This document shows, piece by piece, positions 1,510 through 51,868 of a stretch of 64,000 nucleotides of DNA. A program made the position numbers and the translations under genes. The notes under the pieces were generated by a model. It had not been told where the DNA came from. It did not search any database and was given only the letters and a program-made list of their open reading frames with translations. The number at the start of each line of letters is the position of its first letter. Position 1 is the stretch's first letter. Source of the stretch: Alphaproteobacteria bacterium (GTDB lineage Bacteria > Pseudomonadota > Alphaproteobacteria > UBA828); the NCBI GenBank assembly GCA_963422645.2, contig CAXXVO010000009.1:1-64000 (forward strand), read 5' to 3'.

Positions 1510-3008
1510 AGGCCTCTTGCAAAATAGCTGAGGGGAGCGGCTTTTTTTGCCTGATCGAGGCACTTGCGGTGGGACCGGCCCACCCTCCCCTGTATCATGT
1601 GCTGTCGCTAAACCACCACACGAGAGCCAAGGTGGAGTGGAGCCGTGTCCCTGCGCGAGATGCTATCTGATTATTGGTACGCCTTTCAACTGGAGTTGCT
1701 CCCGGGGCTGGAGAGCGAGCTCGGCCCGATGGGCGAGCGCTACGAGTTCTTCGTCACGGTTCTGGAGTTGGTTCGGGTAGAGGCTCAGCTGCCCTACTTC
1801 CACGGCCAGGTGGGACGGCCGCTGGAAGACCGCGCCGCATTGGCGCGTGCCTTCCTGGCCAAGGCGGTGTTCGACATGCCGACGACACGGGCGCTGATCG
1901 AGCGTCTGGAGGTTGACAGGCGGCTGTGCCGTCTTTGCGGCTGGAGCAGCGTTGGCCGGCTTCCGAGCGAGGCGACGTTTTCGCGTGCCTTTGCGGAGTT
2001 CGCCGAGAGCGGCCTGGCGGGCCGGCTGCATGAGGCGCTGATTGCGCGGACGATGCAGGACCATCTGGTGGAGCACATCTCGCGCGATGCGACGGCGGTC
2101 GAGGCGCGGGAGAAGCCTCAGCGCAAGCCGGGGAAGGCGAAGAAGCGGAGCAAGCGGGGGCGTCCACGCAAGGGAGAGGAGGGCGCGAAGGAGCCGAGCC
2201 GGCTGGAACGTCAACTGACGATGACACTGCCGCAGATGCTGGCGGACTTGCCCAGGGCCTGCGATGTCGGCACCAAGCGAAACGCCAAGGGCCACACCAT
2301 CTCCTGGATCGGCTACAAGCTGCACATCGACACGGCCGACGGCTGCATCCCCATCAGCTGCGTCATGACCTCGGCGTCGACGCATGACTCCCAGGCGGCC
2401 ATCCCGTTGGGCACCTTGACGGCCGGGCGGGTCGAGAACCTCTACGACCTTATGGACTCGGCCTATGATGCGATCGAGATCTGGGCCCACAGCATATCGC
2501 TGGGCCACAAGCCGATCATCGACGTCAATCCGCGCCGCTCGAGCGAAATGAAGGAGGCGTTGAAGCTGGAGAGGAAGGCGCGGCGGACGCTCGGTCTCGT
2601 CTTTCCCGAGGAGCATCGCTACGCCGGGCGCTCGACGGCAGAGCGGCTCAATGGGCGGCTCAAGGATGAGTTCGGCGGCCGCCACGTGCGCGTTCGCGGT
2701 CACGACAAGGTCTTCGCTCACCTGATGTTCGGCATCACCGCGCTGGCGGTCAGCCAACTCATGCGTCTGATCATCCCGCCAATCTAGTCCGGCTCATCTC
2801 CTTCGCCGACACGGCAGTTGGGCATCCTGAGAGATCGAGCGGACAACTGCGCCCGAAACTCGACGAAAACGCCGACTCGGCGGTCTTGCCTACGCAAATG
2901 CGCCCAGAGTCGCCGTCGAAAAATGGGAAATTGCTATGCGCCGCACCCGATGCTAACCAAGGAGTTCTTGCCCGTTCCGAATCCCTCAGCGATTTTGCAA
3001 TTGATACC
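1510..3008 (+). mobile_element. IS5/IS1182-like insertion sequence
   Basis: Inverted repeat TTGCAAAATAGCTGAGGG (1517-1534) / CCCTCAGCGATTTTGCAA (2983-3000), 17/18 match, around one transposase gene. Outer ends uncertain by a few bp; no TSD seen. Confidence 0.75.
1645..2787 (+). CDS. DDE transposase (DUF772 + DDE_Tnp_1-like; IS5/IS1182 type)
   Basis: PSEATFSR, ISRDATAV, WIGYKLH, LMDSAYD and RSTAERLNGRLKDEFG motifs. Confidence 0.85.
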   Translation: MSLREMLSDYWYAFQLELLPGLESELGPMGERYEFFVTVLELVRVEAQLPYFHGQVGRPLEDRAALARAFLAKAVFDMPTTRALIERLEVDRRLCRLCGWSSVGRLPSEATFSRAFAEFAESGLAGRLHEALIARTMQDHLVEHISRDATAVEAREKPQRKPGKAKKRSKRGRPRKGEEGAKEPSRLERQLTMTLPQMLADLPRACDVGTKRNAKGHTISWIGYKLHIDTADGCIPISCVMTSASTHDSQAAIPLGTLTAGRVENLYDLMDSAYDAIEIWAHSISLGHKPIIDVNPRRSSEMKEALKLERKARRTLGLVFPEEHRYAGRSTAERLNGRLKDEFGGRHVRVRGHDKVFAHLMFGITALAVSQLMRLIIPPI

Positions 3009-3026
3009 AATTGCACGGTCTCAACC

Positions 3027-5387
3027 ATGCCCAGTACCCTCCCAATGTGCCCTCCAGAGGCGGTCTCGATCGGCAACAGCTGCTTCGCCGTCCTGATCTC
3101 GGACGACACCTTCACCTACTTTTCCAACCTCATTCCCTTTGACAGCCACGCCGCCGATGACCGCACGGCCATGCTCTTGCGGATCGGCCGCCTCGCGGCG
3201 ATCAGCGCGGTCTCGCCGCAGGAACTGGCTGACGCTTTCGCTGTCTCGCGCGCGACGGTGCAGCGCGCACGACGGCGCTACCTGGCCGAGGGCGAAGCGG
3301 GGTTCATGAAGCCCCGGCGCGGTCGCGGGCCGTCGGTGTTCACTCCGGAGTTGGCGGAGAAGGCGACGGCGTTGCTGGCATCGGGCCTGAGCGGCTCTGC
3401 GGCGGCCCGGGTTCTCGGCGTGTCAGCGCCATCGGTCAACAAGTGGCGCCGTCAGGGACTGATCGGCAACACGGAGGCGGATGGGGAGCCCGGACGCTCA
3501 GCGCTGGCTGCGCCGCCTGACGCGGGTGCGGCTCCTGAAGGCCGTGTCGATGAAGAGAGTACCGGTGCCCCGGGGCCGGAGACGGCGCCGGGGCTGGAAG
3601 CGCAGCCGCAAACGGATCGCAGCGCGCGCGATCGGCGGGACCGGCAGGCGCCGATGGGGCGTGCGACTTGCGATGTTCCGGCTCGGGTTCTGGCCAGTTG
3701 TGGACAGGCGGGGCCGGTCGAACCGCAGTTCGCCGCCGCCGCCCGCGGTGTCCGCTTCGGCGGCGTGCTCGCCGCCCTGCCGGCCCTGCTGAAGGAAGGT
3801 CTTCTCTCCGAGACCGGTCTCCTGCCATTGCTGCCGAAGGGCTATTACGGCTTGCCTACGATCCTGCTCTTCCTGGCCTTCATGACCTTGGCGCGGGTGC
3901 GCAACCCCGAGAGCCTGCGCTACCAGGCGCCGGGCGAATGGGGCGCCATTCTCGGCCTCGATCGCTGCCCCGAGGTCAAGACGCTGCGCCGCAAGATCGC
4001 TCTCATCGCCGACGACGAGGCCGGCGTGCGGGCGTGGCAGCTCGCCCTTGCCAGGCGCTGGCAAGGCGCCGACGAGCCGGAGCTCTGGGCGACGCTGGCC
4101 ATCGACGGGCACGTCAAGGTCTACTCCGGCCGCAAGGGGCGCTTGCCCAAGCACTTCGTCTCGCGCGAGAAGCTGTGCCTGCCGGCGAGCGCCAGCTACT
4201 GGATCAACGCTCTGGGCGGCAAGCCGCTGCTCTGTCTGCACAAGCCGCTGGACCCGAAGATGGTCGCGGCCATCGAAGCCGACGTGGTGCCGGCGCTGCA
4301 GGAGCTTGGGATCGTTGGCGCCGGGGCGCCGGACCTGACCGCCGAGCATCCCGGCCAGCCGGCGCTCACCCTGGTCTTCGACCGCGAGGGCTGGAGCCCG
4401 GATCTGTTCCGCCGGCTGGCGAGGCGCGGCGTCGCCTGCCTGACCTGGCACAAGAACTTCAGGGGCGAGGACTGGCCGGCCGAGGACTTCGGCGCGATGA
4501 CCGTTCCCATTCACGGACCGGCGGCGGACGGCAGCGCCACCATGCGGCTGGCTGAGAAGCCGGTGACGTTGCCGAACGGCTTCAGGGTGCGCCAGATCCG
4601 CCGCCTGCTCGACAACGGCCGTCAGGTGCCGCTGATCACCACCGATCCGCACAAGCCGATGGCTGAGGTTGCGGGCGCCATGTTCTCGCGCTGGTCGCAG
4701 GAGAACTTCTTCAAGTACATGCGTGACGAGTTCAATCTCGACGCCCTGCCGACCCACGAGCTCGAGCCTCTCGATCCCGCCGCCATGGTCGTCAACCCGC
4801 TGCGGCGGGCCTATGACAAGGCAATCCATCGCCTCGACCGCCAGCTTGGCCGCCTGCGCAACCGCATCGCCGACACGGCCCGGAAGAAGCAGCCGACGGC
4901 GGAACTCAGGAGGGAAGTCAGGGACCTCCAGGATGTCCGCGACATCGTCAGGGCCAGCCGCAGGGAGACGCCCAAGCACTGCCGGGCCGGCGACCTCGAC
5001 GAAGCCGAGCAGCTCGATGCCTTGCCCGCGCGCGAGCGCCTCCTCCTCGACGTCATCCGGATGATCGCCTACCGCGCCGAAACCCGCATGATGCTTCCCG
5101 TCATGCAGGCGCAGGGCCACAAGCCCCATCCCCGGAAACTGCTTCAAGCGCTGCTCACCGCCGATGCCGACATCCTGCCGGATCCTGGCAATGGCCTCCT
5201 GCGGGTCCACATTCTTGGCCTCGCAAACGACGCCTGCGACCGTTGGATCGATGCGGTTCTGAGCGACCTGAACGCCACCGAAACGGTCTTCCCCGGCACC
5301 CGTCTGCGCATAGTCTACGACATCGACGGGGCCTCGGAATCCGCGCGGCTCGTGTCACCTAAAATCAGCAGAGGTCAGGAAGTCTGA
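3027..5387 (+). CDS. Large transposase-like protein with N-terminal HTH domains
   Basis: Two HTH-like segments (ELADAFAVSRATVQRARRRY; SAAARVLGVSAPSVNKW), acidic motifs IDGHVKVY, VFDREG and RWSQENFFKYM. Start set at ATG 3027, just outside the upstream IS end (the track start 2886 lies inside that IS). Confidence 0.7.
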   Translation: MPSTLPMCPPEAVSIGNSCFAVLISDDTFTYFSNLIPFDSHAADDRTAMLLRIGRLAAISAVSPQELADAFAVSRATVQRARRRYLAEGEAGFMKPRRGRGPSVFTPELAEKATALLASGLSGSAAARVLGVSAPSVNKWRRQGLIGNTEADGEPGRSALAAPPDAGAAPEGRVDEESTGAPGPETAPGLEAQPQTDRSARDRRDRQAPMGRATCDVPARVLASCGQAGPVEPQFAAAARGVRFGGVLAALPALLKEGLLSETGLLPLLPKGYYGLPTILLFLAFMTLARVRNPESLRYQAPGEWGAILGLDRCPEVKTLRRKIALIADDEAGVRAWQLALARRWQGADEPELWATLAIDGHVKVYSGRKGRLPKHFVSREKLCLPASASYWINALGGKPLLCLHKPLDPKMVAAIEADVVPALQELGIVGAGAPDLTAEHPGQPALTLVFDREGWSPDLFRRLARRGVACLTWHKNFRGEDWPAEDFGAMTVPIHGPAADGSATMRLAEKPVTLPNGFRVRQIRRLLDNGRQVPLITTDPHKPMAEVAGAMFSRWSQENFFKYMRDEFNLDALPTHELEPLDPAAMVVNPLRRAYDKAIHRLDRQLGRLRNRIADTARKKQPTAELRREVRDLQDVRDIVRASRRETPKHCRAGDLDEAEQLDALPARERLLLDVIRMIAYRAETRMMLPVMQAQGHKPHPRKLLQALLTADADILPDPGNGLLRVHILGLANDACDRWIDAVLSDLNATETVFPGTRLRIVYDIDGASESARLVSPKISRGQEV

Positions 5388-5484: not shown

Positions 5485-7410
5485 CTACTCCGCCGCGGCA
5501 CCGGCCTCGGCGGCCTTGGCTTCGCGCTCCTGCAGGAAGCGCAGCACGCGCCGGTTGAACTCCGGCGGCTTGGGCGGCGCGAGCTCGGTCTCTTCCAGGC
5601 AGCGCGCGCGCAGCTCCTCCACGGTGCCGCCGCGATCGAAGAGCTTCACTTCGCCCCGCGCGTCGCGGAGCTTGTCGCGCAAGGCCGTGGTCGCCTCTTC
5701 GTCGACCATCAGATCGTCCCGCAGCACCACGCCGTAGCGCTCGGCACCGGCGCGCGTGACCAGCCCGCGCTCGACCTCCAGCGCCACCAGGGCCGGATCG
5801 CGCTCCAGGGGATCGCCCCAGCCGCCGCCGCCCCAGGTCTTGAAGAGGAGCAGATCGCCGGCCTCGACCTTCACGTGGTCGCACTTGGAGGGCAGCACCT
5901 CGAAGGAGCCGTCGGCGCGGTGGATTTCCTTCCGGCTGCGCCCGCCCGGCAGGCCGCCGTTGACGCCCCACGGATAGGTGAGCCAGCGGTCGTCGTGCAG
6001 CGACATCTCGCCGGGCTCCAGCGCGCGGTAGCCGATGGTGACGCCGTTGCCGCCGCGATGGAGGCCGGGTCCCCCTGAATCCGCGATGGTCTCGTAGACC
6101 TCGATGCGGAGCGGGAAGTACGCCTCCAGGAACTCGTTGGGGACGTTGGTGAACGAGGGCCAGAGCGAGTGCCCGTCGGGGCCGTCGCCCGCCGGCCGGC
6201 CGGGGATGCCGCCGAAGCCGATCTGGTAGAGCTGGTACCACTCGCCTTCGCTGGAATAGCCCGAATACATGAAGTGCGGGCTGTCGGAGAAGCCGGCCGC
6301 CACCATGAGGTTGGGCGCGCGCTGGCCGAGCAGGCCGCCGAGCACGTCGAAGATCCGGCCCAATGCGTGGGTGCGGGAAGAGAGCGCCGCCGGCTTCAGC
6401 GGCTTGAGCAGGGTCCCCGGTGGAATCTTCACATCCACGTGGTCGTAGAAGCCGTCGTTGAACATGATCTGCGGATCGAAGACGTTGATCATGTAAACGC
6501 CGACGAACATCTTGAACATTTCTTCGTTGAGGAAGAAGTTGATCGAGCTTTCCGACTGCGGATCGGTGCCCTCGAAGTCGAACACCAGCACGTCGCCGTC
6601 GCGCCACATCTTGCAGGCCATCGTGTAGGGGCCCATGCCGAGGCCGTCGTCGCAGATGTAGTCCTCGAAGTAGAGGGTCTCGTCCTCGCCGACGGTGTTG
6701 CGGATCAGGTGCAGCATGGCGCGGCGGTTGCGCTCCAGCAGCTCGCCCATCGCGGCGATCACGGTATCGACGCCAAAGCGATCGCAGAGCTCGTGAATGC
6801 GCTTCTCGGCGAGGCGCACGGCGGCGATCAGCGCGTTGAAGTCGCTCCGGTTCCACTGCGGCATCCTGCACTGATGCAGGATCACCTTGAGCACGTCGTC
6901 CTGCAGCTCGTCGTTCTTGTAGATCTTGACGACCGGGATGACGACGCCTTCCTCGTAGATCTGGTTGGCGTCGGTGGGCAGGCTCCCCGGCACCTTGCCG
7001 CCGACATCGGTCATGTGACCGAACATCGAGGCATAGGCGATGAGGCGGCCGTCGCGATACACCGGCCTCAGGATCAGCCAGTCAGGCGCATGGCTGATCG
7101 CGCCGGCGCAGCTGTAGGGATCCGAGGTGAGGAAGATGTCCCCCTCCTCGATGGTTCCGTCGTACTCGCGCTTGAAGCCGTGGATGAATGAGCCGAACTG
7201 GCCGACGACCATCTTGCCGTCGGGGTTCGCGATCATCGGGAACTCGTCGTGCTGCTCGCGGATTCCCGGAGACATGGCGGTGCGATAGAGCACGGCATCC
7301 ATCTCGTAGCGGGCGCTGCGCAGCGCGCTCTCGATGATGTCGAGAGTGATCGGGTCCATGTCGACCGGCTCGAAGGGCGCGTCGTTGGTCTGGACGATGG
7401 TGACTGGCAT
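5485..7410 (-). CDS. Hydantoinase B/oxoprolinase family subunit (N-methylhydantoinase B-like)
   Basis: DPITLDII, SPGIREQHD, FGHMTDVGGKVPGS, TWGGGGWGDPLERDP. GGGGAG RBS before ATG 7410. Confidence 0.9.
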   Translation of the reverse strand: MPVTIVQTNDAPFEPVDMDPITLDIIESALRSARYEMDAVLYRTAMSPGIREQHDEFPMIANPDGKMVVGQFGSFIHGFKREYDGTIEEGDIFLTSDPYSCAGAISHAPDWLILRPVYRDGRLIAYASMFGHMTDVGGKVPGSLPTDANQIYEEGVVIPVVKIYKNDELQDDVLKVILHQCRMPQWNRSDFNALIAAVRLAEKRIHELCDRFGVDTVIAAMGELLERNRRAMLHLIRNTVGEDETLYFEDYICDDGLGMGPYTMACKMWRDGDVLVFDFEGTDPQSESSINFFLNEEMFKMFVGVYMINVFDPQIMFNDGFYDHVDVKIPPGTLLKPLKPAALSSRTHALGRIFDVLGGLLGQRAPNLMVAAGFSDSPHFMYSGYSSEGEWYQLYQIGFGGIPGRPAGDGPDGHSLWPSFTNVPNEFLEAYFPLRIEVYETIADSGGPGLHRGGNGVTIGYRALEPGEMSLHDDRWLTYPWGVNGGLPGGRSRKEIHRADGSFEVLPSKCDHVKVEAGDLLLFKTWGGGGWGDPLERDPALVALEVERGLVTRAGAERYGVVLRDDLMVDEEATTALRDKLRDARGEVKLFDRGGTVEELRARCLEETELAPPKPPEFNRRVLRFLQEREAKAAEAGAAAE

Positions 7411-36955: not shown

Positions 36956-37228
36956 CCCGGAAAGGGCCGTGAATTGGCTGGAAACGGTGATTTTCGGGGC
37001 GTTTCAGGGGTGCTGAAAGGCCTGTATGTCAATCGGCTTTCAATACTGACCCCCGATCGGCGTGCAAAATTGACCCCCCTGAGTGGCACGGCGGAGGTTG
37101 TCCCGGTAGCCAATAGGGGGGACCCGCGCGGCTTCGTGTGGCGCCCTGCGCTACGCGGAGCGAAGCCGCGTGGGGGGTCCCTGTTGGCCCACCGGGGCAA
37201 CCGGGCCGCAAGGGAGGCCGGCGGCGGG

Positions 37229-37957
37229 TCAGGAGCGGTTCTTGAAGCGCCAGCTCTCGTTGCCGGTCTCGATGATCTCGCAATGATGGGTGAGGCGATC
37301 GAGCAGCGCTGTGGTCATCTTGGGGTCGCCGAAGACGGATGGCCATTCGCCGAAGGCGAGGTTTGTGGTGATGACGATCGAGGTGCGCTCGTAGAGCCGG
37401 CTCATCAGATGGAAGAGCAGCTGCCCACCGGCCTGGGCGAAGGGCAGGTAGCCGAGCTCGTCGAGGATGACGAAGTCGCGGCGGACGAGCTGGTCTGCAG
37501 TGCGGCCCTGGCGTCCGGCGCGAAGCTCGGCCTCGAGGAGGTTGACCAGGTCGACGACGTTGTAGCACCGGCCGCGCGCGCCCTTGCGGATGCAGGACCG
37601 CGCGATGGCGACGGCGAGATGGGTCTTGCCGGTACCGGTGCCGCCGACCAGCACGATGTTGCGTTTGCCCTCGAGGAAGCCGCCGCCGGCGAGCTCCTGG
37701 ATCAGGGGCTCGTTGACCGGCGAGGCGGCGAAGTCGAAGTCGGCCAGCTCCTTGACCGTCGGCAGCTTGGCGGAGGCCATCTGGTACTTGATCGAGCGGG
37801 CCCTCTTGTCGGCGATCTCGACCTGCAGCAGCGTACCGATGATCTGTTGCACCGGATGGCGGCGCTTGAGCCCGTCGGCAAGGATGTCGTCGTAAGCGGC
37901 GCGCATACCTGCGAGCTTCAGCTGGGTCATCATCTCCAGCACATCATGACGCTCCAT
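37229..37957 (-). CDS. istB: IS21 helper AAA+ ATPase IstB
   Basis: [42 protein letters not shown]. Confidence 0.95.
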
Positions 37958-39458
37958 GACCGGCCTCCCTCAGGCTGTCGTAGCGCTGACAGTCGGCTAC
38001 CGGCTTGTGGCGAAGCTGCAGGCCCTCGGGCGTCGGGATGATTGCCGGCGGTGCCGGCTGGCGCTGCCGGGCGAGGATGTTGAGCACCACGTCGGCGCTG
38101 CAGGCACCGCAGTCGAGCGTCTCGGCACAGGCCGCCTCAACCGCCTCCAGTCCGTCCTCCAGCACCGCCGCGAGCACCTTGACGAACTGCCGGTCGCCGT
38201 CGTCGTGGCCCGCGAGCCGGGTTCGCAGGCGGCCGAGCGCGTTGGGCAACTGCCAGTCCTTGAAGGGCGCGCCATTGCGTAGCGCGCCGGGCTTCCGCGT
38301 CAGGATCGGCACGTAATGCCACGGATCGTAGACGAACCGGCCGCGCCCGAAGCTGCGGGGGTGCTCGGCAACGGTCTCGCCGTCCTGGCGGATGACGATC
38401 CGATCGGCATAGGCCCGCACGTCCACCGGCCGGCCGACGGCGCGGGCCGCGACGCTGTACTGGTTGTTGTCGAAGCGCACCAGACAGGTCTTCGAGACCG
38501 ACACCTCGCTGGCATGGAAGCCGTCGAAGGGGCCGCGATACGCCATCAGGAAGGGCTGCTCCTCCTCGAACACCTGCCACACCGTCTTGCCCGGGATTGT
38601 CGGATGCGGATGCTTCTTGGCGTCCTCGATGCACCGATCCATCAGCCACTCGTTGATCTCGGCGTAGGAGCGGCCCCGCGGGATGGGCACGAACAGGCGG
38701 CCGCGAAGGTCACCCACCTGCTTCTCGACCTGCCCCTTCTCCCAGCCAGCCCCTGGCGTGCACGCCACAGGCTCCACCAGATGGTGCGAGCACAGCTCCT
38801 GGAAGCGGCGGTTGTAGTCCCGCTTCTTGCCCACGAAGATCGTGCTCACCGCCGTCTTCATGTTGTCGTAGATGCCCCGCCGGCAGACCCCGCCGAAGAA
38901 GCGGAAGGCACGCTCGTGCGCCTCGAAGACCATCTCCTGGCTCTCGCGGGGAAAGATCTGGACCAGATACATCCGGCTGTGGCACAGCCGCATGTGCGCC
39001 GCCTTCACCCTGGTCGTCGCGCCCGACAGACGCGCGTACTCGTGGCTCCAGTCGAACTGGTAGGCCTCGCCGGGATCGAAGATCAGCGGCACATAGGCCT
39101 GCGCCGGCGACAACAGCCGCCACCGGCGCCGCCAGGCCCTGGCATAGCGGCGAACCGCGTCATAGCCGCCCTTGTAGCCCAGCGACACAAGGTCTTCATG
39201 AATCCGCAGAAGAGACAGCCGATCCTTGCGTGCCTTCTTCTCGTTGGCCTTCAGCTGGCGCTCAAGCTCCTCCACCCACAGCCCAAGCTTCGGCATCGGC
39301 TGGATCTTGCGCTCGTAGCTGTGCGAGGTCGCATCGCCCCGCACCACCTTGCGTATCGTGTTCTTGGAAACCCTCAAATCCCGGGCGAGCTTCTTGATCG
39401 GAACGCCCTTCACCAGATGATCCCGACGGATCTTCGCGATCGTTTCCACAACCAGCAT
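37944..39458 (-). CDS. istA: IS21 transposase IstA
   Basis: N-terminal [28 protein letters not shown]. Overlaps istB. Confidence 0.95.
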
Positions 39459-39653
39459 CTCCCCCACCACCCCGTCCGTCCAAACGACGAGGTGTGTTCA
39501 TGGACACAAATCCAAGGGGGTCAATTTTGGACGCCGATCACCCCCAATAGGGGGTCACTTTTCCACGCTTAACAACACGCTCCTTCACGGCCCATGCACA
39601 GGCCGGTTTTTCCAGCCCGATTCAGCCCCGAAAACCAGACGATTTTCCAGGCC

Positions 39654-42912: not shown

Positions 42913-44724
42913 TTACGAAGGGGTTGGCAAGCGCCATATGGAACTTCTCGCGGGCGTCGTAGGCGGGCTTGGCCTGTTCATCGTCGGGATGTGGCTCCTG
43001 ACGGAGAACCTCAAGAAGCTCGCGAGCCGGCGGCTGCGCCAGATTGCGCATGGCTGGACCGGAAACCCGTTTGGACGCCCTGAACGCAAAAGGCAACCTT
43101 CGCCTTCGGTGCTGTGGTTGCCGGGTTTCGACGGGTCTGGACCGCCGCCTGGCGATCCCGAGATTGGGATTGAATGGCGAATGGTGATTTTGTCCTCGGT
43201 GACCAACACCTCCTTCACGATGAGCCGGACGATGCGCTGCCGTTCGGCGATGTCCAGGGTTTCGGCGGACGAGTGCAGCCGCGCCAGAAAGCCGGTCAGC
43301 GTCTCGGCGAGCCGGAGATAGGTCTCGCGATCCTTCGCCCGATCGACGGTGGATTGCAGTTCGCGATTCAGAGCCTGATCCTGACGACGGAGCTCGGACG
43401 TTCTGTCGCGCAGTTCATCGATTGTAATCAACTCCTCCTGATAGGCGTTGACCAGGCGGTCGATGCTTTTTCGGACCCGGATCAGACGGTGCCGCAGGTC
43501 GTTCTCGCGCTGCTGGTTTGGATCGGAAGCGCGGGCCGCCTGTAGTCGCCGGTCGATCTCGGCGCCGATCAGTGCTGGATCCTCGAGCAGGCGGACCACT
43601 TCGCCCCAGACGACGTCATCGAGCAAGTCCTGGCGCACCGGCCGACTGTCGCACACCGGTCCGTTGAGATGGCGCCAAGAGTCAGAACCCAGGCAGCGAT
43701 AATAGGAGATCTTGCGGGCACTCGTCTGGGCCGATGTGCGAGACAGCGCGTAGCCGCATTTGCCGCACGAGACCAGTCCCTGGAGCACGCTGGGCGTCTT
43801 CGTGCGACGCGGCGCGTGGATCTTGTTCATCTCCAGCCGCTCTTCGGCCAGGGCGAAGGTCTCTTCGCTGACGATCGCCGGCACCGGGATCTCGATCCAC
43901 TCCTCACGCGGTTTTTCGTGACCGCCGGTCGTGCCGCTGGCCACGCCGCGGCGCAGGCGCAGAGGACGTGTCACACATTTACGCGGCATCTGGCGGGTCT
44001 TGCCGAAACAGGCTTTCCCCTTGTACGCCGGATTGCGGAGCATCGCCCACACCGTCGAGCGTTCCCAGCGCGAGCGCCCGGTGGAGGTGGGTACCGCGCG
44101 CTCATTGAGCCTGCAGGTGATCGCGCCGATGCTCATGTGATCGCAGGTGTAGCAGCGGTAAACCTCGCGAACCACCGACGCCTGCGGCTCGACGATTTCG
44201 TAGAACGCATCGCTGTCCGGGGTTTTCTTGTGGTAGCGGTAGCCATAGGGCGCGCCGCCGAGGACGGCGATTTCGCCGCGTCGCGCCCGATGTCGCTTGC
44301 CGCGCCGGGAACGCTCCAGGATTTGCGCGCGCTCGTATTCCGCAATCATGCCCTGGAACTGGACGAGCAGATGATCTTCCGGGGTTTCCATCGACGGCGC
44401 TCTCAAGAACACGGTCTCGACGCCCTGACGGGCCAGCTCCTCGATGATCAGAACCTGGTAGGCATAGCGCCGGCTCATACGGTCCGGGGCATGGACCAGC
44501 ACCGTGTCGATGCGCCCTTCCGCGGCGAGATCCCTGACCCGCTCGAGCCCCGGGCGTTCGAGAACGGCGCCGGTATAGCCGTCATCTTCAATGATCATGT
44601 CGGGCGCGACGCTGTAACCGTGGTCCTCGGCGTAGGCGATCAGGGCCTCGGTCTGGCTCGCTATCGTGTTGTCATCTCTCTGCCGCTCGCCGGAGACCCG
44701 CGCGTAAATGGCTGCGATCTTCAT
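42913..44724 (-). CDS. Large serine recombinase (resolvase + recombinase + Zn-ribbon/coiled coil); reads through the element end
   Basis: IYARVS catalytic Ser, DDGYTGAVLERPGL, DRMSR, AEYER, PYGY, CGKCG...YYRC...C. AGGAG RBS. Confidence 0.93.
   Translation of the reverse strand: MKIAAIYARVSGERQRDDNTIASQTEALIAYAEDHGYSVAPDMIIEDDGYTGAVLERPGLERVRDLAAEGRIDTVLVHAPDRMSRRYAYQVLIIEELARQGVETVFLRAPSMETPEDHLLVQFQGMIAEYERAQILERSRRGKRHRARRGEIAVLGGAPYGYRYHKKTPDSDAFYEIVEPQASVVREVYRCYTCDHMSIGAITCRLNERAVPTSTGRSRWERSTVWAMLRNPAYKGKACFGKTRQMPRKCVTRPLRLRRGVASGTTGGHEKPREEWIEIPVPAIVSEETFALAEERLEMNKIHAPRRTKTPSVLQGLVSCGKCGYALSRTSAQTSARKISYYRCLGSDSWRHLNGPVCDSRPVRQDLLDDVVWGEVVRLLEDPALIGAEIDRRLQAARASDPNQQRENDLRHRLIRVRKSIDRLVNAYQEELITIDELRDRTSELRRQDQALNRELQSTVDRAKDRETYLRLAETLTGFLARLHSSAETLDIAERQRIVRLIVKEVLVTEDKITIRHSIPISGSPGGGPDPSKPGNHSTEGEGCLLRSGRPNGFPVQPCAIWRSRRLASFLRFSVRSHIPTMNRPSPPTTPARSSIWRLPTPS
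42938..43073 (+). pseudogene. 5' fragment of a Na/Pi-cotransporter family gene cut by the recombinase element
   Basis: MELLAGVVGGLGLFIVGMWLLTENLKKLASRRLR...TGNPF resembles the family's N-terminus. The similarity stops at the element's inverted repeat. Confidence 0.7.
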
Positions 44725-44922
44725 GGTCGTCTCCTATGTCCTGCGCTCGGACCGGGATTTGCCGTGAAACAGATTCTGGCGAGGGACGCGCGGTGACGCT
44801 CCAACCCCGAGGTCACGGCGTTGGCTGAGACCGCCAGGGTCGGCGCGGCGGAGACGAGCGGTGGACTTCCCCGATGTGGTCCGAAGCGGTCCCGCGTAGC
44901 CGGCTGACGAGATGCGGGCCGC

Positions 44923-46173
44923 TCAGGCGGCCTTGAGTTCCGCGCCTACGGGCTCGATGTAGCCGTAGCGGCGGAGCATGCGGATCCACCGAGGAGCGTT
45001 GCGCTTGACCATCAGAGCGTCGTAGTCGGCCGTGCGGTCGTAGTAGGGCCTGCCGGTCTTGAGCACCACATAGATGATGCGCAGCATCTTGTGAGCGCCG
45101 GCGACGATGGCGCGCTTGTAGCCGCGCCGGGCGGCGAGGGCGCGGTGATGAGCCTCGAACTGGCACCCCTTGGTTCGGGCCGCGCCGTGGGCACACTCGA
45201 CGAGGCAGGCGCGCAGGGTCTTGGAGCCCATGCGGGTGCGTGCGTTGCGGCGCTTGCCCCCGCTCTCGTTGTTGCCGGGGCAGAGCCCGGCCCAGGCGGC
45301 GAAGTGCTCCTTGGAGGCGAACACGCCGATGTCGGGGCCGATCTCGATGAGGATGGTCGAGGCGGCGGTGCGGTCGATGCCGGGGATGGTGGTCAGCAGA
45401 CGGAGCTGCTCCTCCCACGGTGTCATCTGCCCGTCGATCTTCCTGGTGTAGGACGCGATGCGCGCCTCAAGCGCGTCATGCTCCTCCAGCAGGTCGTTGA
45501 GCATGAAGCGGTCGTTGTCGCCCAGGCTCAGGGTGAGCGCCTCGCCGAGCCCCTCCAGCTTGTTCGCAACGTGGCTGGTGAGCGAGGCGAGGATGACCTC
45601 GCGCGCCGTCCCCTGCGCCAGGCCGTCGAGGATCTTCCGGCCGTTGACGCCGAAGACGTCGGAGAGGATGCCGCCGATGCGCGCACCGGCGCGGTCGATG
45701 ATCTTCTGCACGCGGTTGCGCACGGCGGAGCGCTGCCTGACCAGGACGCGGCGCTGGCGGCTCAGTGCGCGCAGCTCCCGGAACGGCTCAGGCGGAACGT
45801 GGGAAGGCGTGCAGAGCCCGAACTGGCACACGCAGGCCAGCCACACGCTGTCCGCCACGTCGGTCTTGCGCCCCTTCAACTGCTTCACCTGACGCGCATG
45901 CACCAGGATCGCCTCGAGCCCGGCCGCCTCCAGGGCCGCGAAGGGCGCCTGCCAGTAGACCCCGGTCCCTTCCATCACCGCAGCCTCGACGCCGTGACCG
46001 GTCAGCCACGCGACCATCTCCTCCAGACCGCTCGGCAGCGTGCCGAAGCAGCGCGTCTCCACCACCGGCTCACCCTCGCCCTCACAGAGGCGAACCGTCG
46101 CGGTGATCTCCATCTTGTGCACGTCCAGACCCGCCGCGCGCGGCCGGACGACGTGCAAGCCTTCCGTCTTCAT
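44923..46173 (-). CDS. IS110-family DEDD recombinase, copy 1
   Basis: GLDVHK, VMEGTG, KTDVADS (DEDD), TIPGI, WAGLCPGNNESGGK (catalytic Ser loop). GAGGAGG RBS before ATG 46173. Confidence 0.95.
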   Translation of the reverse strand: MKTEGLHVVRPRAAGLDVHKMEITATVRLCEGEGEPVVETRCFGTLPSGLEEMVAWLTGHGVEAAVMEGTGVYWQAPFAALEAAGLEAILVHARQVKQLKGRKTDVADSVWLACVCQFGLCTPSHVPPEPFRELRALSRQRRVLVRQRSAVRNRVQKIIDRAGARIGGILSDVFGVNGRKILDGLAQGTAREVILASLTSHVANKLEGLGEALTLSLGDNDRFMLNDLLEEHDALEARIASYTRKIDGQMTPWEEQLRLLTTIPGIDRTAASTILIEIGPDIGVFASKEHFAAWAGLCPGNNESGGKRRNARTRMGSKTLRACLVECAHGAARTKGCQFEAHHRALAARRGYKRAIVAGAHKMLRIIYVVLKTGRPYYDRTADYDALMVKRNAPRWIRMLRRYGYIEPVGAELKAA

Positions 46174-46239
46174 CGCCTTCCTCCTCATTTGCGCTCTCGC
46201 CACGGCGGCGTACGATCACGCCGTGGCATCGCCACGGTG

Positions 46240-46415
46240 GAGGCGGGGACAGCGGTCGGAAGAACACGCATCCGACGAGCGGGTGCGGTGCAATTTGCCG
46301 CGCGTCCACGGCCACGGGCCGGGTACAATACGGGGTGCGGAGCCGGCCGCCGGAAGCAGTTTTGTCATCGGGAACTACGTCACCGATATAACGACGCTCA
46401 CACGTCCCCACCTCC
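46240..46415 (-). ncRNA. Putative bridge RNA (also in copies 2 and 3, at +1768 and +3537)
   Basis: Multi-hairpin non-coding region upstream of the IS110 gene with guide-like matches to the target (TGACAAAA, GTATT) and the donor junction (CGCGGCAAA, GTGTT). Boundaries are approximate. Confidence 0.6.
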
Positions 46416-46527
46416 GCCAATACCCATCCTGACACGGCAAATGGGTGCAAGCGCAAGGAAAACGTCAGCCGAACCGCTCCTGTTTCATGCCACGGGGTGG
46501 CTCAGAACCGCGGGGACCATGACTGTT

Positions 46528-48293
46528 TGCCGTGAAACAGATTCTGGCGAGGGACGCGCGGTGACGCTCCAACCCCGAGGTCACGGCGTTGGCTGAGACC
46601 GCCAGGGTCGGCGCGGCGGAGACGAGCGGTGGACTTCCCCGATGTGGTCCGAAGCGGTCCCGCGTAGCCGGCTGACGAGATGCGGGCCGCTCAGGCGGCC
46701 TTGAGTTCCGCGCCTACGGGCTCGATGTAGCCGTAGCGGCGGAGCATGCGGATCCACCGAGGAGCGTTGCGCTTGACCATCAGAGCGTCGTAGTCGGCCG
46801 TGCGGTCGTAGTAGGGCCTGCCGGTCTTGAGCACCACATAGATGATGCGCAGCATCTTGTGAGCGCCGGCGACGATGGCGCGCTTGTAGCCGCGCCGGGC
46901 GGCGAGGGCGCGGTGATGAGCCTCGAACTGGCACCCCTTGGTTCGGGCCGCGCCGTGGGCACACTCGACGAGGCAGGCGCGCAGGGTCTTGGAGCCCATG
47001 CGGGTGCGTGCGTTGCGGCGCTTGCCCCCGCTCTCGTTGTTGCCGGGGCAGAGCCCGGCCCAGGCGGCGAAGTGCTCCTTGGAGGCGAACACGCCGATGT
47101 CGGGGCCGATCTCGATGAGGATGGTCGAGGCGGCGGTGCGGTCGATGCCGGGGATGGTGGTCAGCAGACGGAGCTGCTCCTCCCACGGTGTCATCTGCCC
47201 GTCGATCTTCCTGGTGTAGGACGCGATGCGCGCCTCAAGCGCGTCATGCTCCTCCAGCAGGTCGTTGAGCATGAAGCGGTCGTTGTCGCCCAGGCTCAGG
47301 GTGAGCGCCTCGCCGAGCCCCTCCAGCTTGTTCGCAACGTGGCTGGTGAGCGAGGCGAGGATGACCTCGCGCGCCGTCCCCTGCGCCAGGCCGTCGAGGA
47401 TCTTCCGGCCGTTGACGCCGAAGACGTCGGAGAGGATGCCGCCGATGCGCGCACCGGCGCGGTCGATGATCTTCTGCACGCGGTTGCGCACGGCGGAGCG
47501 CTGCCTGACCAGGACGCGGCGCTGGCGGCTCAGTGCGCGCAGCTCCCGGAACGGCTCAGGCGGAACGTGGGAAGGCGTGCAGAGCCCGAACTGGCACACG
47601 CAGGCCAGCCACACGCTGTCCGCCACGTCGGTCTTGCGCCCCTTCAACTGCTTCACCTGACGCGCATGCACCAGGATCGCCTCGAGCCCGGCCGCCTCCA
47701 GGGCCGCGAAGGGCGCCTGCCAGTAGACCCCGGTCCCTTCCATCACCGCAGCCTCGACGCCGTGACCGGTCAGCCACGCGACCATCTCCTCCAGACCGCT
47801 CGGCAGCGTGCCGAAGCAGCGCGTCTCCACCACCGGCTCACCCTCGCCCTCACAGAGGCGAACCGTCGCGGTGATCTCCATCTTGTGCACGTCCAGACCC
47901 GCCGCGCGCGGCCGGACGACGTGCAAGCCTTCCGTCTTCATCGCCTTCCTCCTCATTTGCGCTCTCGCCACGGCGGCGTACGATCACGCCGTGGCATCGC
48001 CACGGTGGAGGCGGGGACAGCGGTCGGAAGAACACGCATCCGACGAGCGGGTGCGGTGCAATTTGCCGCGCGTCCACGGCCACGGGCCGGGTACAATACG
48101 GGGTGCGGAGCCGGCCGCCGGAAGCAGTTTTGTCATCGGGAACTACGTCACCGATATAACGACGCTCACACGTCCCCACCTCCGCCAATACCCATCCTGA
48201 CACGGCAAATGGGTGCAAGCGCAAGGAAAACGTCAGCCGAACCGCTCCTGTTTCATGCCACGGGGTGGCTCAGAACCGCGGGGACCATGACTG
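46528..48293 (-). mobile_element. IS110-family element, copy 2 (1766 bp)
   Basis: Direct repeat of copy 1, joined by CTG-TTT-GCC. Confidence 0.92.
46691..47941 (-). CDS. IS110-family DEDD recombinase, copy 2
   Basis: Translation identical to copy 1. Confidence 0.95.
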   Translation of the reverse strand: MKTEGLHVVRPRAAGLDVHKMEITATVRLCEGEGEPVVETRCFGTLPSGLEEMVAWLTGHGVEAAVMEGTGVYWQAPFAALEAAGLEAILVHARQVKQLKGRKTDVADSVWLACVCQFGLCTPSHVPPEPFRELRALSRQRRVLVRQRSAVRNRVQKIIDRAGARIGGILSDVFGVNGRKILDGLAQGTAREVILASLTSHVANKLEGLGEALTLSLGDNDRFMLNDLLEEHDALEARIASYTRKIDGQMTPWEEQLRLLTTIPGIDRTAASTILIEIGPDIGVFASKEHFAAWAGLCPGNNESGGKRRNARTRMGSKTLRACLVECAHGAARTKGCQFEAHHRALAARRGYKRAIVAGAHKMLRIIYVVLKTGRPYYDRTADYDALMVKRNAPRWIRMLRRYGYIEPVGAELKAA

Positions 48294-48296
48294 TTT

Positions 48297-50062
48297 TGCC
48301 GTGAAACAGATTCTGGCGAGGGACGCGCGGTGACGCTCCAACCCCGAGGTCACGGCGTTGGCTGAGACCGCCAGGGTCGGCGCGGCGGAGACGAGCGGTG
48401 GACTTCCCCGATGTGGTCCGAAGCGGTCCCGCGTAGCCGGCTGACGAGATGCGGGCCGCTCAGGCGGCCTTGAGTTCCGCGCCTACGGGCTCGATGTAGC
48501 CGTAGCGGCGGAGCATGCGGATCCACCGAGGAGCGTTGCGCTTGACCATCAGAGCGTCGTAGTCGGCCGTGCGGTCGTAGTAGGGCCTGCCGGTCTTGAG
48601 CACCACATAGATGATGCGCAGCATCTTGTGAGCGCCGGCGACGATGGCGCGCTTGTAGCCGCGCCGGGCGGCGAGGGCGCGGTGATGAGCCTCGAACTGG
48701 CACCCCTTGGTTCGGGCCGCGCCGTGGGCACACTCGACGAGGCAGGCGCGCAGGGTCTTGGAGCCCATGCGGGTGCGTGCGTTGCGGCGCTTGCCCCCGC
48801 TCTCGTTGTTGCCGGGGCAGAGCCCGGCCCAGGCGGCGAAGTGCTCCTTGGAGGCGAACACGCCGATGTCGGGGCCGATCTCGATGAGGATGGTCGAGGC
48901 GGCGGTGCGGTCGATGCCGGGGATGGTGGTCAGCAGACGGAGCTGCTCCTCCCACGGTGTCATCTGCCCGTCGATCTTCCTGGTGTAGGACGCGATGCGC
49001 GCCTCAAGCGCGTCATGCTCCTCCAGCAGGTCGTTGAGCATGAAGCGGTCGTTGTCGCCCAGGCTCAGGGTGAGCGCCTCGCCGAGCCCCTCCAGCTTGT
49101 TCGCAACGTGGCTGGTGAGCGAGGCGAGGATGACCTCGCGCGCCGTCCCCTGCGCCAGGCCGTCGAGGATCTTCCGGCCGTTGACGCCGAAGACGTCGGA
49201 GAGGATGCCGCCGATGCGCGCACCGGCGCGGTCGATGATCTTCTGCACGCGGTTGCGCACGGCGGAGCGCTGCCTGACCAGGACGCGGCGCTGGCGGCTC
49301 AGTGCGCGCAGCTCCCGGAACGGCTCAGGCGGAACGTGGGAAGGCGTGCAGAGCCCGAACTGGCACACGCAGGCCAGCCACACGCTGTCCGCCACGTCGG
49401 TCTTGCGCCCCTTCAACTGCTTCACCTGACGCGCATGCACCAGGATCGCCTCGAGCCCGGCCGCCTCCAGGGCCGCGAAGGGCGCCTGCCAGTAGACCCC
49501 GGTCCCTTCCATCACCGCAGCCTCGACGCCGTGACCGGTCAGCCACGCGACCATCTCCTCCAGACCGCTCGGCAGCGTGCCGAAGCAGCGCGTCTCCACC
49601 ACCGGCTCACCCTCGCCCTCACAGAGGCGAACCGTCGCGGTGATCTCCATCTTGTGCACGTCCAGACCCGCCGCGCGCGGCCGGACGACGTGCAAGCCTT
49701 CCGTCTTCATCGCCTTCCTCCTCATTTGCGCTCTCGCCACGGCGGCGTACGATCACGCCGTGGCATCGCCACGGTGGAGGCGGGGACAGCGGTCGGAAGA
49801 ACACGCATCCGACGAGCGGGTGCGGTGCAATTTGCCGCGCGTCCACGGCCACGGGCCGGGTACAATACGGGGTGCGGAGCCGGCCGCCGGAAGCAGTTTT
49901 GTCATCGGGAACTACGTCACCGATATAACGACGCTCACACGTCCCCACCTCCGCCAATACCCATCCTGACACGGCAAATGGGTGCAAGCGCAAGGAAAAC
50001 GTCAGCCGAACCGCTCCTGTTTCATGCCACGGGGTGGCTCAGAACCGCGGGGACCATGACTG
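48297..50062 (-). mobile_element. IS110-family element, copy 3 (1766 bp)
   Basis: Direct repeat, joined to copy 2 by CTG-TTTT-GCC (one extra T). Confidence 0.92.
48460..49710 (-). CDS. IS110-family DEDD recombinase, copy 3
   Basis: Translation identical to copy 1. Confidence 0.95.
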   Translation of the reverse strand: MKTEGLHVVRPRAAGLDVHKMEITATVRLCEGEGEPVVETRCFGTLPSGLEEMVAWLTGHGVEAAVMEGTGVYWQAPFAALEAAGLEAILVHARQVKQLKGRKTDVADSVWLACVCQFGLCTPSHVPPEPFRELRALSRQRRVLVRQRSAVRNRVQKIIDRAGARIGGILSDVFGVNGRKILDGLAQGTAREVILASLTSHVANKLEGLGEALTLSLGDNDRFMLNDLLEEHDALEARIASYTRKIDGQMTPWEEQLRLLTTIPGIDRTAASTILIEIGPDIGVFASKEHFAAWAGLCPGNNESGGKRRNARTRMGSKTLRACLVECAHGAARTKGCQFEAHHRALAARRGYKRAIVAGAHKMLRIIYVVLKTGRPYYDRTADYDALMVKRNAPRWIRMLRRYGYIEPVGAELKAA

Positions 50063-50175
50063 TTTTGTGAGTTTGATCGGGCACCAGGATCGCGTAGGCG
50101 TTGTGGAGTTTGGCGTCGAGCAGACGATCGAAGGCATAAGCGAGGTGAACCGTGGGCCGAGCGCCCAAGCGACGT

Positions 50176-50505
50176 TCAGCCATGCCGATCCGCGTCCGAT
50201 AAAAAGCGTCTCAGCGCCCGCGCGACGATCTCCCCGATGGAGTGGCCGCTGCTCCTGGCGTGGGCTCGCAAGGTCTCCGCCAGAGTGCCTGGAATCTTGA
50301 TGGTGATCGGGATCAGCTCTTCGGTCGGCTCGGCCGGCTGGCCCATGGCGCGCGCGTCCTGGACGTAGCGATAGGACTGACGCTGCGACAGCCCGAAGCG
50401 CTGCGACAGCCGTGCCACGGCTTCGCTCGCCGTGGCGCCCTGGGCGAGCAGCGTGTAGGCGGCATTGAGCCGCTCGACCTTCTGGGATCTTGTTGACCGG
50501 ATCAT
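50176..50505 (-). CDS. Small HTH/RHH-like DNA-binding protein, first gene of the recombinase element
   Basis: LSQRFGLSQRQSYRYV (HTH-like), then ITIKIPGTLAETLRAHA...IGEIVARAL (RHH-like). Lies inside the TIR. Confidence 0.72.
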   Translation of the reverse strand: MIRSTRSQKVERLNAAYTLLAQGATASEAVARLSQRFGLSQRQSYRYVQDARAMGQPAEPTEELIPITIKIPGTLAETLRAHARSSGHSIGEIVARALRRFLSDADRHG

Positions 50506-50602
50506 TTGCCATAAGAATATTACCGTTTGCGGCGCAAGTCAGTCAAGGGACGGTCTCGCCATTCCACAATCTGACGTTCGAAGCGGAAGTTACCTTTTGC
50601 GT

Positions 50603-51868
50603 TCAGGGCGTCAGCGCGCAGCATGCGAGGTAATTTGCGAGGCGCGTGTTGCGCAGGACCGCGACGTTGGCGGCCCTGTACAGCTCGAAGTCGGCTTCAA
50701 GATCGGCGATCGGCGGCGGGCTGACCGCCACCGTGGGCATGATGAGAACGCCGTGCCGCCTGATCCGCGCGTGGAGACGCCCGGCGATCTCGGCAAGACC
50801 CTGCTTGGCCCGGTCGGCGTCGGTTGCTGACATCTGGGCGCCGGAGCGGATGCGCTCCTGGATGGGTGTGTAGACCAGCTCGGGCCGCGACTCGATCACG
50901 TCGTACCAAAGCGCGTGGCATTCGGCGGCGTGATAGGGGCCGAGTCGACCGACCAGCGCCTCGGCCTCATCGAACTCGGGCACCGGCGTCTCGTCGATGG
51001 TGCAGCCGGCGGCGCGCAGGCGCTCGACCGCGCCGCGTGAGGCCGCCTCCACGTGGGGATCCAGCGAGCCCCAGACGAGTGTGGTCGGGAACGCGAAACG
51101 GGTGCGCGAAACTGTGGCGCCTTCGAGGTCGGGCGCCGGGCGGTTGCCGGCGCCGAAGCGCCCGTCGAGCACGGCGAAGAGGGCGGCAGCGTCGGCCACG
51201 TCTTGGGTCAGCGGGCCGACCGTGTCCATGCTGGTGCTGAGCCCCAGCACGCCATCCAGCGGCAGCAGCCCAAAGCTCGTCTTAAGACCGACGAGTTCGT
51301 TCCACGCGGCAGGCACACGCACGGAGCCGCCCGTGTCCGAGCCGATGGCGGCGGCGGCAAGGCCGCGCGAGAGGGAGACGGCCGCGCCCGAGGACGACCC
51401 GCCGGGCAGGCGGGCGAGGGACTCGTCGAAGGGATTGGGCGGCGTGCCCAGCTTGGGATTGAGCCCGAGGATGGAGAAGGCGAACTCGCTCTGGTTGGTC
51501 TTGCCGAGGCAGACCAGGCCTGCGCGGGTGGCGCGCGCTAGAACCGTCGCATCGCGTCGGGCGACGCGGTCCGCCAGAGCCGGCGTGCCGTGGCCGGTGA
51601 TGTCGCCGGCGCTGTCGTAGAGGTCCTTCCACGAGATCGGCACGCCGTCCAGCGGCGATTGTCTGAGGCCGGTCCGGGCACGCCGGTGGGCGGCGTCGGC
51701 CTCGGCGCGGGCGCGCTCGGCGGTGAGGCGCAGGTAGATCGCGCGGTCGCCGTCGGCAGCCTCGATCCGCTCGAGGAAGAACGCGGTCAGCGCACGTGGA
51801 TCGATGGCGCGGCTCCCGATGCCTGCGCCGAGCGCAAGCGCGCTCATCCGATGCCAGTCGCCGCTCAT
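50603..51868 (-). pseudogene. Amidase-signature family enzyme, 3'-truncated by the recombinase element
   Basis: GVPISWKDL, PGGSSSG, IGSDTGGSVRVPA. The ORF ends at CALTP* with the stop inside the element's inverted repeat; the usual C-terminal LP-GL segment is missing. Confidence 0.8.

Follow-up and report, generated by a model that had tools for sequence, protein, structure and literature searches.

Head-to-tail arrays of an IS110-family element with junctions of two lengths in an alphaproteobacterial genome

The closest described systems are IS621 and the other bridge-RNA elements of the IS110 group, reportedly described by Durrant et al. and Hiraizumi et al. in 2024. Arrays of the kind analysed here are already known for the IS110 family. 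Preprints of 2026 report tandem whole-module IS110 duplications (n = 437) together with half-match recombination, and multi-copy head-to-tail IS110 modules are described there as growing in place at one site, which the authors credit to the resident recombinase acting at half-matches. Their definition of an array, namely at least two complete modules on the same strand, adjacent and at least 95% identical, covers the array described below. Our arrays are alike in consisting of head-to-tail modules that grow at one site and differ in that the left junction remains a match to the empirical target, and in that an unexpanded element forms six pure arrays whose junctions have two lengths. IS621 is reported to insert when the partner DNA offers a single half-site. 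In an excision assay with CazIS110-1, tandem cargo repeats are reported for 3 of 96 colonies (bioRxiv 10.1101/2025.10.25.684509). There, too, an element was tandemly repeated while the recombinase system was active; however, the repeats of that assay were lost again by reversion and described as transient by-products, whereas up to five copies are fixed at six loci in the present genome.

Reactive tandem dimers are also formed by IS21- and IS911-type elements, which share with IS30 DDE transposases, inverted-repeat junctions and unstable dimers. For IS30, a reactive tandem dimer is described in which the abutted copies are an active transposition substrate (PMC9333248). An end-to-end junction from two abutted copies is likewise what we find here, although the IS21 element of the present genome forms no tandem pair (0/67).

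In the window, by which we mean the whole 64,000-nucleotide stretch of DNA analysed, an exact-string search found a body of 1765 nt (GCCGTG...ATGACTG) three times between 44761 and 50062, always on the minus strand: copy 1 at 44761..46525, copy 2 at 46529..48293 and copy 3 at 48298..50062. Repeat analysis places the starts of the three IS110 copies at 44758, 46526 and 48295, a spacing of 1768 and 1769, with a pairwise identity of 100% over 1771-1773 nt when the shared T runs are counted. Three exact copies of 1.77 kb cannot be chance. The identical modules are separated by only 3 and 4 nt. Internal junction 1, CTG-TTT-GCCG (46526..46528), corresponds to the canonical RE-core-LE donor junction with 3 T, and internal junction 2, CTG-TTTT-GCCG (48294..48297), to the same junction lengthened by one T. 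On its left the array is bounded by a TTT run at 44758..44760 (in transposase orientation the RH junction, CGGC-AA-A(T)) and on the right by a TTTT run at 50063..50066 (the LH junction, ACAAAA|CAG). The preliminary description had reported three head-to-tail copies of 1766 bp with no spacer and the junction strings GGGA-TTT-GCCG, CTG-TTT-GCCG, CTG-TTTT-GCCG and CTG-TTTT-GTGAG. All four strings match exactly, a short T run alone stands between the 1765-nt bodies, and the length agrees with a 1766-nt element (the body plus one adjoining T) and the 2-nt core implied by the empty sites discussed below. At the level of sequence we regard the array of three head-to-tail IS110 copies as confirmed to be genuine, with the support against assembly error being indirect.

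Each copy carries the same recombinase gene of 416 aa on the minus strand (44923..46173 in copy 1, 46691-47941 and 48460-49710 in copies 2 and 3). Its Pfam matches, DEDD_Tnp_IS110 (PF01548, 1.9e-23) and Transposase_20 (PF02371, 4.6e-21), bear out the earlier assignment of the unit to the IS110 family and give the domain order of the group, an N-terminal DEDD RuvC-like domain followed by a C-terminal Tnp domain with the catalytic serine. The translation shows GLDVHK at the N-terminus, and alignment with the IS621 transposase 8wt6 (E 6.3e-16) brings the motifs ME-GTG, KTDxxD and ESG into register. The element ends, CAGTCATGG... and ...TTTCACGGC, are without inverted repeats, as the IS110 group requires, and a short duplicated core and a sequence-specific target were found as well. 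Both the assembly and a 52-nt contig from sequence run X15 contain the RE-core-LE junction sequence, contigs being unable to separate a circle from a tandem copy. The element thus resembles IS621 in its two protein domains and 8wt6 match, in its short duplicated core and RE-core-LE donor, and in an upstream non-coding leader with one segment matching left target plus core and another matching right end plus core.

This leader comprises 352 nt upstream of the recombinase gene, with one block conserved in 10 relatives. In copy 1 the conserved non-coding region, as delimited by the ten-relative alignment and RNAalifold, lies at 46181..46426 on the minus strand and is repeated at +1768 and +3537. 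We read it as a putative bridge RNA with a left target guide and a left donor guide. The candidate left target guide, GACAAAAC (46359..46366, minus strand), has the same letters as the 5' flank followed by the first element base, agrees with the target logo, and changes with the target as expected of a bridge RNA: the segments GACAAAAC, CACCAAAC, ACGCAAAC, ATCTAAAC, GCAAAAAAC and ATATAAAC each agree with the 5' flank of their own element, and guide-to-own-flank matches reach 6-9 of 9 positions in 11 elements while cross pairs average 5.4. The candidate left donor guide, CGGCAAAT (46293..46300, minus strand), matches right end and core, again as in a bridge RNA, its first 7 nt CGGCAAA corresponding to the right end CACGGC plus AAA. 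Because this motif (invariant in 10/10 aligned relatives) and the right ends are both conserved, the match is one of identity without covariation. RNAalifold predicts 58 pairs in the leader, with compensatory change in only 3, and an Rfam scan returned nothing above threshold (the best, P10, scored 22 bits where 37 are required). Inspection by eye of the relatives' alignment gave no clean complementary segment for the right target and right donor guides; the candidates GUAUUGUAC and GUGUUC were dropped for a register that was inconsistent across relatives.

Empty paralogs at four of four independent sites show that insertion adds 3 T, which we read as a 2-nt core plus one element base; those of the host element read GGGA-TTTT-GTGAG. 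Judged by these comparisons, the element is 1766 nt long with a 2-nt AA/TT core and a target of 5'-(G)ACA|AA|R. When 32 unique sites are combined, the target logo is ACAAAA|AAR and carries 1.4-2 bits per position in the 5' ACAAAA and, on the 3' side, AA, A/G and little more. The guide GACAAAAC matches the left junction GACA-AA-ACAG at 8/8 positions at 16 of the 32 sites (G at -7), and the site of the window array itself has C at -7, so that it matches at 7/8. On the right flank the 4-nt run is TTTT at 35 of 36 loci and TTTC at the remaining one. Whereas the target of IS621 is a longer REP sequence, the present one amounts to about 6-7 informative bases in an A run, and the guide match, unlike that of IS621, extends into the element's own first base. 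Given the 3 T added per insertion, the TTT junction is the canonical donor junction; the preliminary view of the internal junctions as chromosomal copies of the donor site therefore stands for TTT and fails for TTTT, which has one T too many.

The array lies inside a 2.2-kb serine-recombinase element present as five copies. The left terminal inverted repeat of this host (43074..43103, 30 nt, 90% complementary) is where paralogy begins, and the right one was located by repeat analysis and paralogy at 50583..50612. The large serine recombinase (42913..44724, minus strand; Pfam Resolvase, Recombinase and Zn_ribbon_recom) is oriented like the IS genes, its start codon being 33 nt away from the array. 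The five host copies carry 0, 0, 1, 2 and 3 IS copies at one same site, a series that fits the earlier suggestion of expansion and contraction in place.

Across the whole genome, an exact-string search found 47 exact IS copies at 36 loci, with no difference among them over 83 kb in total; the element, which we take to be active, is in a recent burst here. Seventeen of the 47 lie in six head-to-tail arrays (2, 2, 2, 3, 3 and 5 copies), one of which is the array in the window, and all six sit inside long contigs, away from contig ends. Among the 11 internal junctions, five have the TTTT form. The junction order is 3,3,4,4 in the pentamer and nested (4 / 4,3) in other arrays; the three arrays with a 3-T flank have junctions 4; 4; 3,4, and those with a 2-T flank have a 2-T junction in 0/7 cases. 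No head-to-tail full-length array was found among 57 related loci from other genomes, one of which, L044, has a further partial match some 260 nt upstream, and the junction pattern, searched in 49 genomes of the order, matched the source genome only.

Arrays of another IS110 element occur in independent assemblies of congeners. In the closed congener genome G004, a different IS110 element is present as 47 full copies, of which 26 form at least 10 arrays. There is a 2-nt (AG) junction variant, the off-register form reads AGAGC, and partial units with recurrent breakpoints (query 138-1707, and a 1-142 fragment) adjoin full copies. These partial units point to events that would be site-specific rather than homologous.

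We lean, if only slightly, toward the view that the recombinase of the element itself built the array by adding copies where resident ones end. The anatomy, the target, the guide, the canonical junction, the number of arrays and the differences in copy number between paralogous sites are observed, while the enzyme responsible for the junctions and any effect of arrays on activity are inferred. An excised circle would recombine with a resident copy at its end, or two sister copies would recombine, the left junction of one with the right junction of the other; both routes would leave an RE-core-LE donor junction between copies. Integration of a multimer, as proposed in the preliminary description, is a further candidate route, and the self-amplifying reservoir proposed there is a hypothesis. 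Nearly all target information lies in the left target and core, so that every inserted copy keeps a target-like site at its left junction, which would make the element prone to such events, and each copy carries donor half-sites at both ends. Copy number could later change by unequal homologous exchange. By a rough count, resident copies account for 11 of the 43 events that the 32 unique sites and 11 junctions make up, while the 36 occupied left junctions are about 3.6% of the 987 ACAAAR sites in the genome, an enrichment to be read knowing that used sites are proven good sites and that unequal exchange can multiply one founding event. Some points speak against an origin by the recombinase. 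If RecA integrated a circle into a resident copy, the junction would be identical; the 4-T form is not produced by a precise 2-nt-core reaction on the observed flanks; and a few tandem pairs occur for IS66 and for the Transposase_29 element as well, so that a generic tandem route exists in this genome. As for the extra T, shifted-register insertion at the right junction, other core positions and a 3-nt core were each rejected because they predict a flank run one base off at C8, C10 and C19, and shifted-register sister exchange fits the 3-T-flank arrays and fails for the C11 array with its 2-T flank. A strong junction promoter was likewise dropped: IS621 is described as rebuilding one (Nature 2026, PMC13626964), whereas here a sigma-70 scan gave 0 sites in 46000-48500 and a lenient scan at most 7/12 matches for both junction forms.

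The foremost alternative, which we hold to be possible though rather unlikely, is that RecA joined a resident copy to an excised, double-stranded circle of the IS by recombination at any point along the 1.77 kb. The resulting dimer would contain the circle junction, and unequal sister exchange would then have made trimers and pentamers. Homology is ideal for such a reaction, all 47 copies being identical, its predicted product is the observed product, and the 3,3,4,4 order of the pentamer and the nested patterns can come from unequal exchange. The IS66 dimers of this genome, which have the same 8-bp duplication at left, middle and right, show that a tandem route outside IS110 exists here. However, head-to-tail neighbours are far from evenly spread, with 11/47 for the IS110 element against 0/67 for IS21 and 2/89 for IS66 (6/82 for the Transposase_29 element), and the fixed-breakpoint partial units beside full copies in G004 are unlike products of homologous exchange. 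In addition, the circles of IS621 are mainly single-stranded according to one preprint.

We give very little credence to an assembly artefact, in which circles or repeat-rich reads led to extra tandem copies being written and the difference between 3 and 4 T is a homopolymer error. This draft genome consists of 23 contigs and is very rich in repeats, and among the matches listed from four sequence runs, searched as Logan contigs (assembled, not raw reads, so that missing forms were not counted as absence), the only contig across a junction is the 52-nt one of X15, which spans the TTTT form with 22 and 29 letters per side, short of the 31-letter bridging rule. No 3-T bridging piece was among these matches, and the Logan contigs of runs X17 and X19 include none with the inserted T, which we do not take as absence. 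Yet word depth in X15 is 19 on the 4-T contig against 139 on the IS body, where 5 of 47 copies would predict about 15. The position of all six arrays within long contigs, the low base-level error implied by 47 copies without a difference, and junction lengths that differ within one array also argue against an artefact, as does the same architecture formed by another element in the closed G004 genome, whose AG variant is not a homopolymer error. Equally improbable is duplication without any recombinase, by slippage or illegitimate exchange between the flanking T runs: TTT and TTTT flanks in two registers would yield exactly the 3 or 4 T seen, as in the 3-T-flank arrays, but 2-4 bases of homology are very weak, the 2-T-flank arrays lack a 2-T junction, and 11 junctions far exceed those of other IS families, whose duplications are longer.

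A broader conjecture, which we consider quite unlikely, is that IS110 elements whose guide is confined almost wholly to the left target rebuild their own site with each insertion and are intrinsically array-forming; the present element and the unrelated one of G004 would be examples. The arrays would then be live donor sites driving bursts and large rearrangements, and off-register junctions (TTTT, AGAGC) poor donors that lock an array against resolution.

IS110 recombinases are in development as programmable genome editors, and the frequency and junction form with which an adjacent copy is added bear on safety and yield. At one and the same site, the host element provides a natural series of 0, 1, 2 and 3 copies in which two junction lengths occur, and the genome illustrates how a small element rose to 47 identical copies within a single bacterium. 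The simple rule that it suggests, that a target read mostly on the left is regenerated by insertion, contradicts a statement in a recent preprint.

JGI metagenome contigs gave 0 matches to the two junction patterns. Sequence run X1 contains a relative of 95-99% identity with other flanks.

The array on the minus strand at 44758..50066 consists of three head-to-tail copies of an IS110 element and is a real, well-defined case of a structure lately described for this family. A repeat search of the window placed the copy starts at 44758, 46526 and 48295 (spacing 1768 and 1769), direct comparison found 1771-1773 nt identical among the three copies, and exact-string matching located a 1765-nt body at 44761-46525, 46529-48293 and 48298-50062, all on the minus strand. 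In order, direct comparison gives the junction strings GGGA-TTT-GCCG, CTG-TTT-GCCG, CTG-TTTT-GCCG and CTG-TTTT-GTGAG; the preliminary description, which is partly supported overall, had the three directly joined copies and all four strings exactly right. Each copy encodes a 416-aa protein on the minus strand that matches Pfam DEDD_Tnp_IS110 (1.9e-23) and Transposase_20 (4.6e-21) and the IS621 transposase (PDB 8wt6; E 6.3e-16), to whose E, D..D and ESG motifs it aligns.

At 32 unique sites in the genome, read in transposase orientation, the element is preceded by 5'-ACAAAA and followed by AA(A/G), with little information further 3'. For four independent sites the genome also contains empty paralogs, and these show that insertion adds three T (4/4), the T run being 7 when filled and 4 when empty at three sites, and 6 and 3 at one site (66 empty copies). 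Because one site has the 3-T empty form, one A of the 5' run is assigned to the element. On the simplest reading, the element is thus 1766 nt (ACAG...CGGC) with an AA core and the target (G)ACA/AA/R, and the donor junction is therefore CGGC-AA-ACAG, or CTG-TTT-GCCG on the plus strand. The earlier proposal that both internal junctions are chromosomal copies of the donor site holds for the first, which is the canonical donor junction, while the second carries one extra T.

A 352-nt non-coding leader lies 5' of the recombinase gene, and it was aligned with those of ten relatives from other genomes. Within it, the segment GACAAAAC reproduces the conserved 5' flank exactly and covaries with that flank in relatives, where ATCTAAAC, CACCAAAC, ACGCAAAC and GCAAAAAAC each fit their own flank (6-9/9 matches for own pairs, against a mean of 5.4 for cross pairs, n=102). 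A second segment, CGGCAAA, corresponds to the right end (CACGGC) followed by AAA and does not vary in the alignment. These two segments are what a bridge RNA should carry as its left target and left donor guides. No right-side guides were identified in the leader and its ten aligned relatives, no Rfam family scored above its threshold for the leader, and the predicted fold shows compensatory change in only 3/58 pairs. Near the left end, the subterminal segment GGCATGAAACAG (46479-46490) forms an imperfect inverted repeat (10/12) of the right-end tip (44761-44772); both have counterparts at the corresponding positions of copies 2 and 3, and the segment is kept in nearly all aligned relatives.

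Throughout the assembly (23 contigs, 5.9 Mb), the element has 47 exact copies, distributed over 36 loci. At six of these the copies form head-to-tail arrays (2, 2, 2, 3, 3 and 5 copies), which together hold 17/47 copies; their 11 internal junctions have 3 T in six cases and 4 T in five. One further copy (C16:23527-25256), about 2 kb away from that contig's three-copy array, lacks 20 nt internally and has one mismatch. Arrays of the same element thus do exist at other loci of this genome, as had been suggested might be sought in related genomes, but among 49 genomes of the order its junction pattern was found here alone, and a search of JGI metagenome contigs gave no match to it. Head-to-tail neighbours number 11/47 for IS110 compared with 0/67 for IS21, 2/89 for IS66 and 6/82 for a Transposase_29 element. 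The genome is packed with insertion sequences besides IS110: at >=95% identity, full-length copies number 82 for Transposase_29 (PF21804), 67 for IS21 (IstA/IstB) and 89 for IS66 (examples of abundant elements at 3001-5387 and 37027-39578 of the window and at C10:83094-84981). The IS66 dimers (C9:406466-410252, locus L095, and C8:518888-522541) have the same 8-bp duplication GAGAATGA at left, middle and right, and the six same-strand Transposase_29 pairs are spaced 128-132 nt apart.

The array lies in a host element (43074-50612; about 2.23 kb without the array) with 30-nt inverted repeats at 43074-43103 and 50583-50612 that begin GACGCCCTGAACGCAAAAGG. Coded in the host element are a large serine recombinase of 603 aa, whose reading frame crosses the left inverted repeat and continues into the flank, and a 157-aa ORF without any Pfam hit. 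Its five copies, 99.9-100% identical in unrelated flanks, constitute a natural IS copy-number series at a single site: besides the three-copy version in the window, two are empty (C6:198685-200919 and C8:633549-635782), one carries one IS (C19:32282-36286) and one carries two joined by TTTT (C8:727381-733151). By one SNP, the two-copy and three-copy versions go with one empty copy and the one-copy version goes with the other.

How such arrays arise is best considered from the target. Since target information lies nearly all in the left target and core, the left junction GACA-AA-ACAG of each inserted copy still fits the empirical target; the guide matches it at 8/8 positions for sites with G at -7 (16/32 sites), and at 7/8 in the window, whose own site has C at -7. 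Donor half-sites are present at both ends of a copy. The inserted copy would therefore remain target-like on its left while its ends supply donor half-sites, and the recombinase could add copies there. Published work on IS621 states that one half-site is enough for insertion, and an IS110 excision study reports tandem cargo repeats in 3/96 colonies (bioRxiv 10.1101/2025.10.25.684509). Of the 987 ACAAAR sites in the genome, the 36 occupied left junctions account for about 3.6%, yet by a rough count 11/43 events took place at resident copies. On these grounds we modestly favour the IS110 recombinase as the maker of the arrays. Recombination of a circle into a resident copy by RecA, which would give the same product, is the less probable route, and slippage between the T runs at the flanks is a weak third possibility that we consider very improbable. 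Precise reactions were tested against the flanks as the source of the extra T (5/11 junctions), and none fits. Beyond the literature consulted are the evidence that insertion of this IS110 element may leave a usable target, and the two junction lengths of 3 T and 4 T.

It is highly doubtful that the array is an assembly artefact. The read-level check rested on Logan contigs, in which a 52-nt contig of run X15 spans the extra-T junction at word depth 19 (139 for the IS body; about 15 expected for the 4-T junction, 5/47 copies), with sides of 22 and 29 letters that fall under the 31-letter bridging rule; no piece spanning the 3-T junction was among the matches listed. The indirect support is stronger. 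The arrays sit within long contigs, and all 47 copies are error-free, yet junctions vary inside one array. In addition, G004, a closed congeneric genome, carries 47 full copies of a different element, IS110 by Pfam (1704 nt, AGC junction; C1, loci L013, L014 and L087-L093), 26 of them in at least ten arrays and with 5' flanks that are all TGTTGTTAAGC or nearly so. One junction there reads AGAGC instead of AGC, and the same extra AG occurs at one array's right flank; off-register junctions therefore occur more than once and cannot be put down to homopolymer errors in sequencing. Full copies in that genome are adjoined by partial units whose breakpoints recur (query 138-1707; 1-142 fragment).

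As to the proposal that the array may act as a self-amplifying reservoir, promoter scans of both junction forms gave no sigma-70-type promoter, and no terminator was found between copies; read-through from one copy into the next copy's leader is possible. One report states that IS621 excision needs transcription through the element (PMC13626964).

Close relatives of the element (88-98% nucleotide identity) are found, each as a single copy, in MAGs that bear the labels Thalassobaculaceae, Alphaproteobacteria and Candidatus Binatia; by label (L017-L064), identity is 94-98% for Alphaproteobacteria and Thalassobaculaceae, 88% for Candidatus Binatia and 89-91% for Gammaproteobacteria (partial). Such near-identical or close copies in MAGs labelled as different phyla suggest recent horizontal spread. 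The 89% relatives are retargeted to the repeated sequence CATATAAA/ACCGGACAGCAGTGGAC. In one relative (L034, about 5895-5935), the right end's last 12 nt plus AAA stand twice in tandem, CTGTTTCACGGC-AAA-CTGTTTCACGGC-AAA, followed by the flank.
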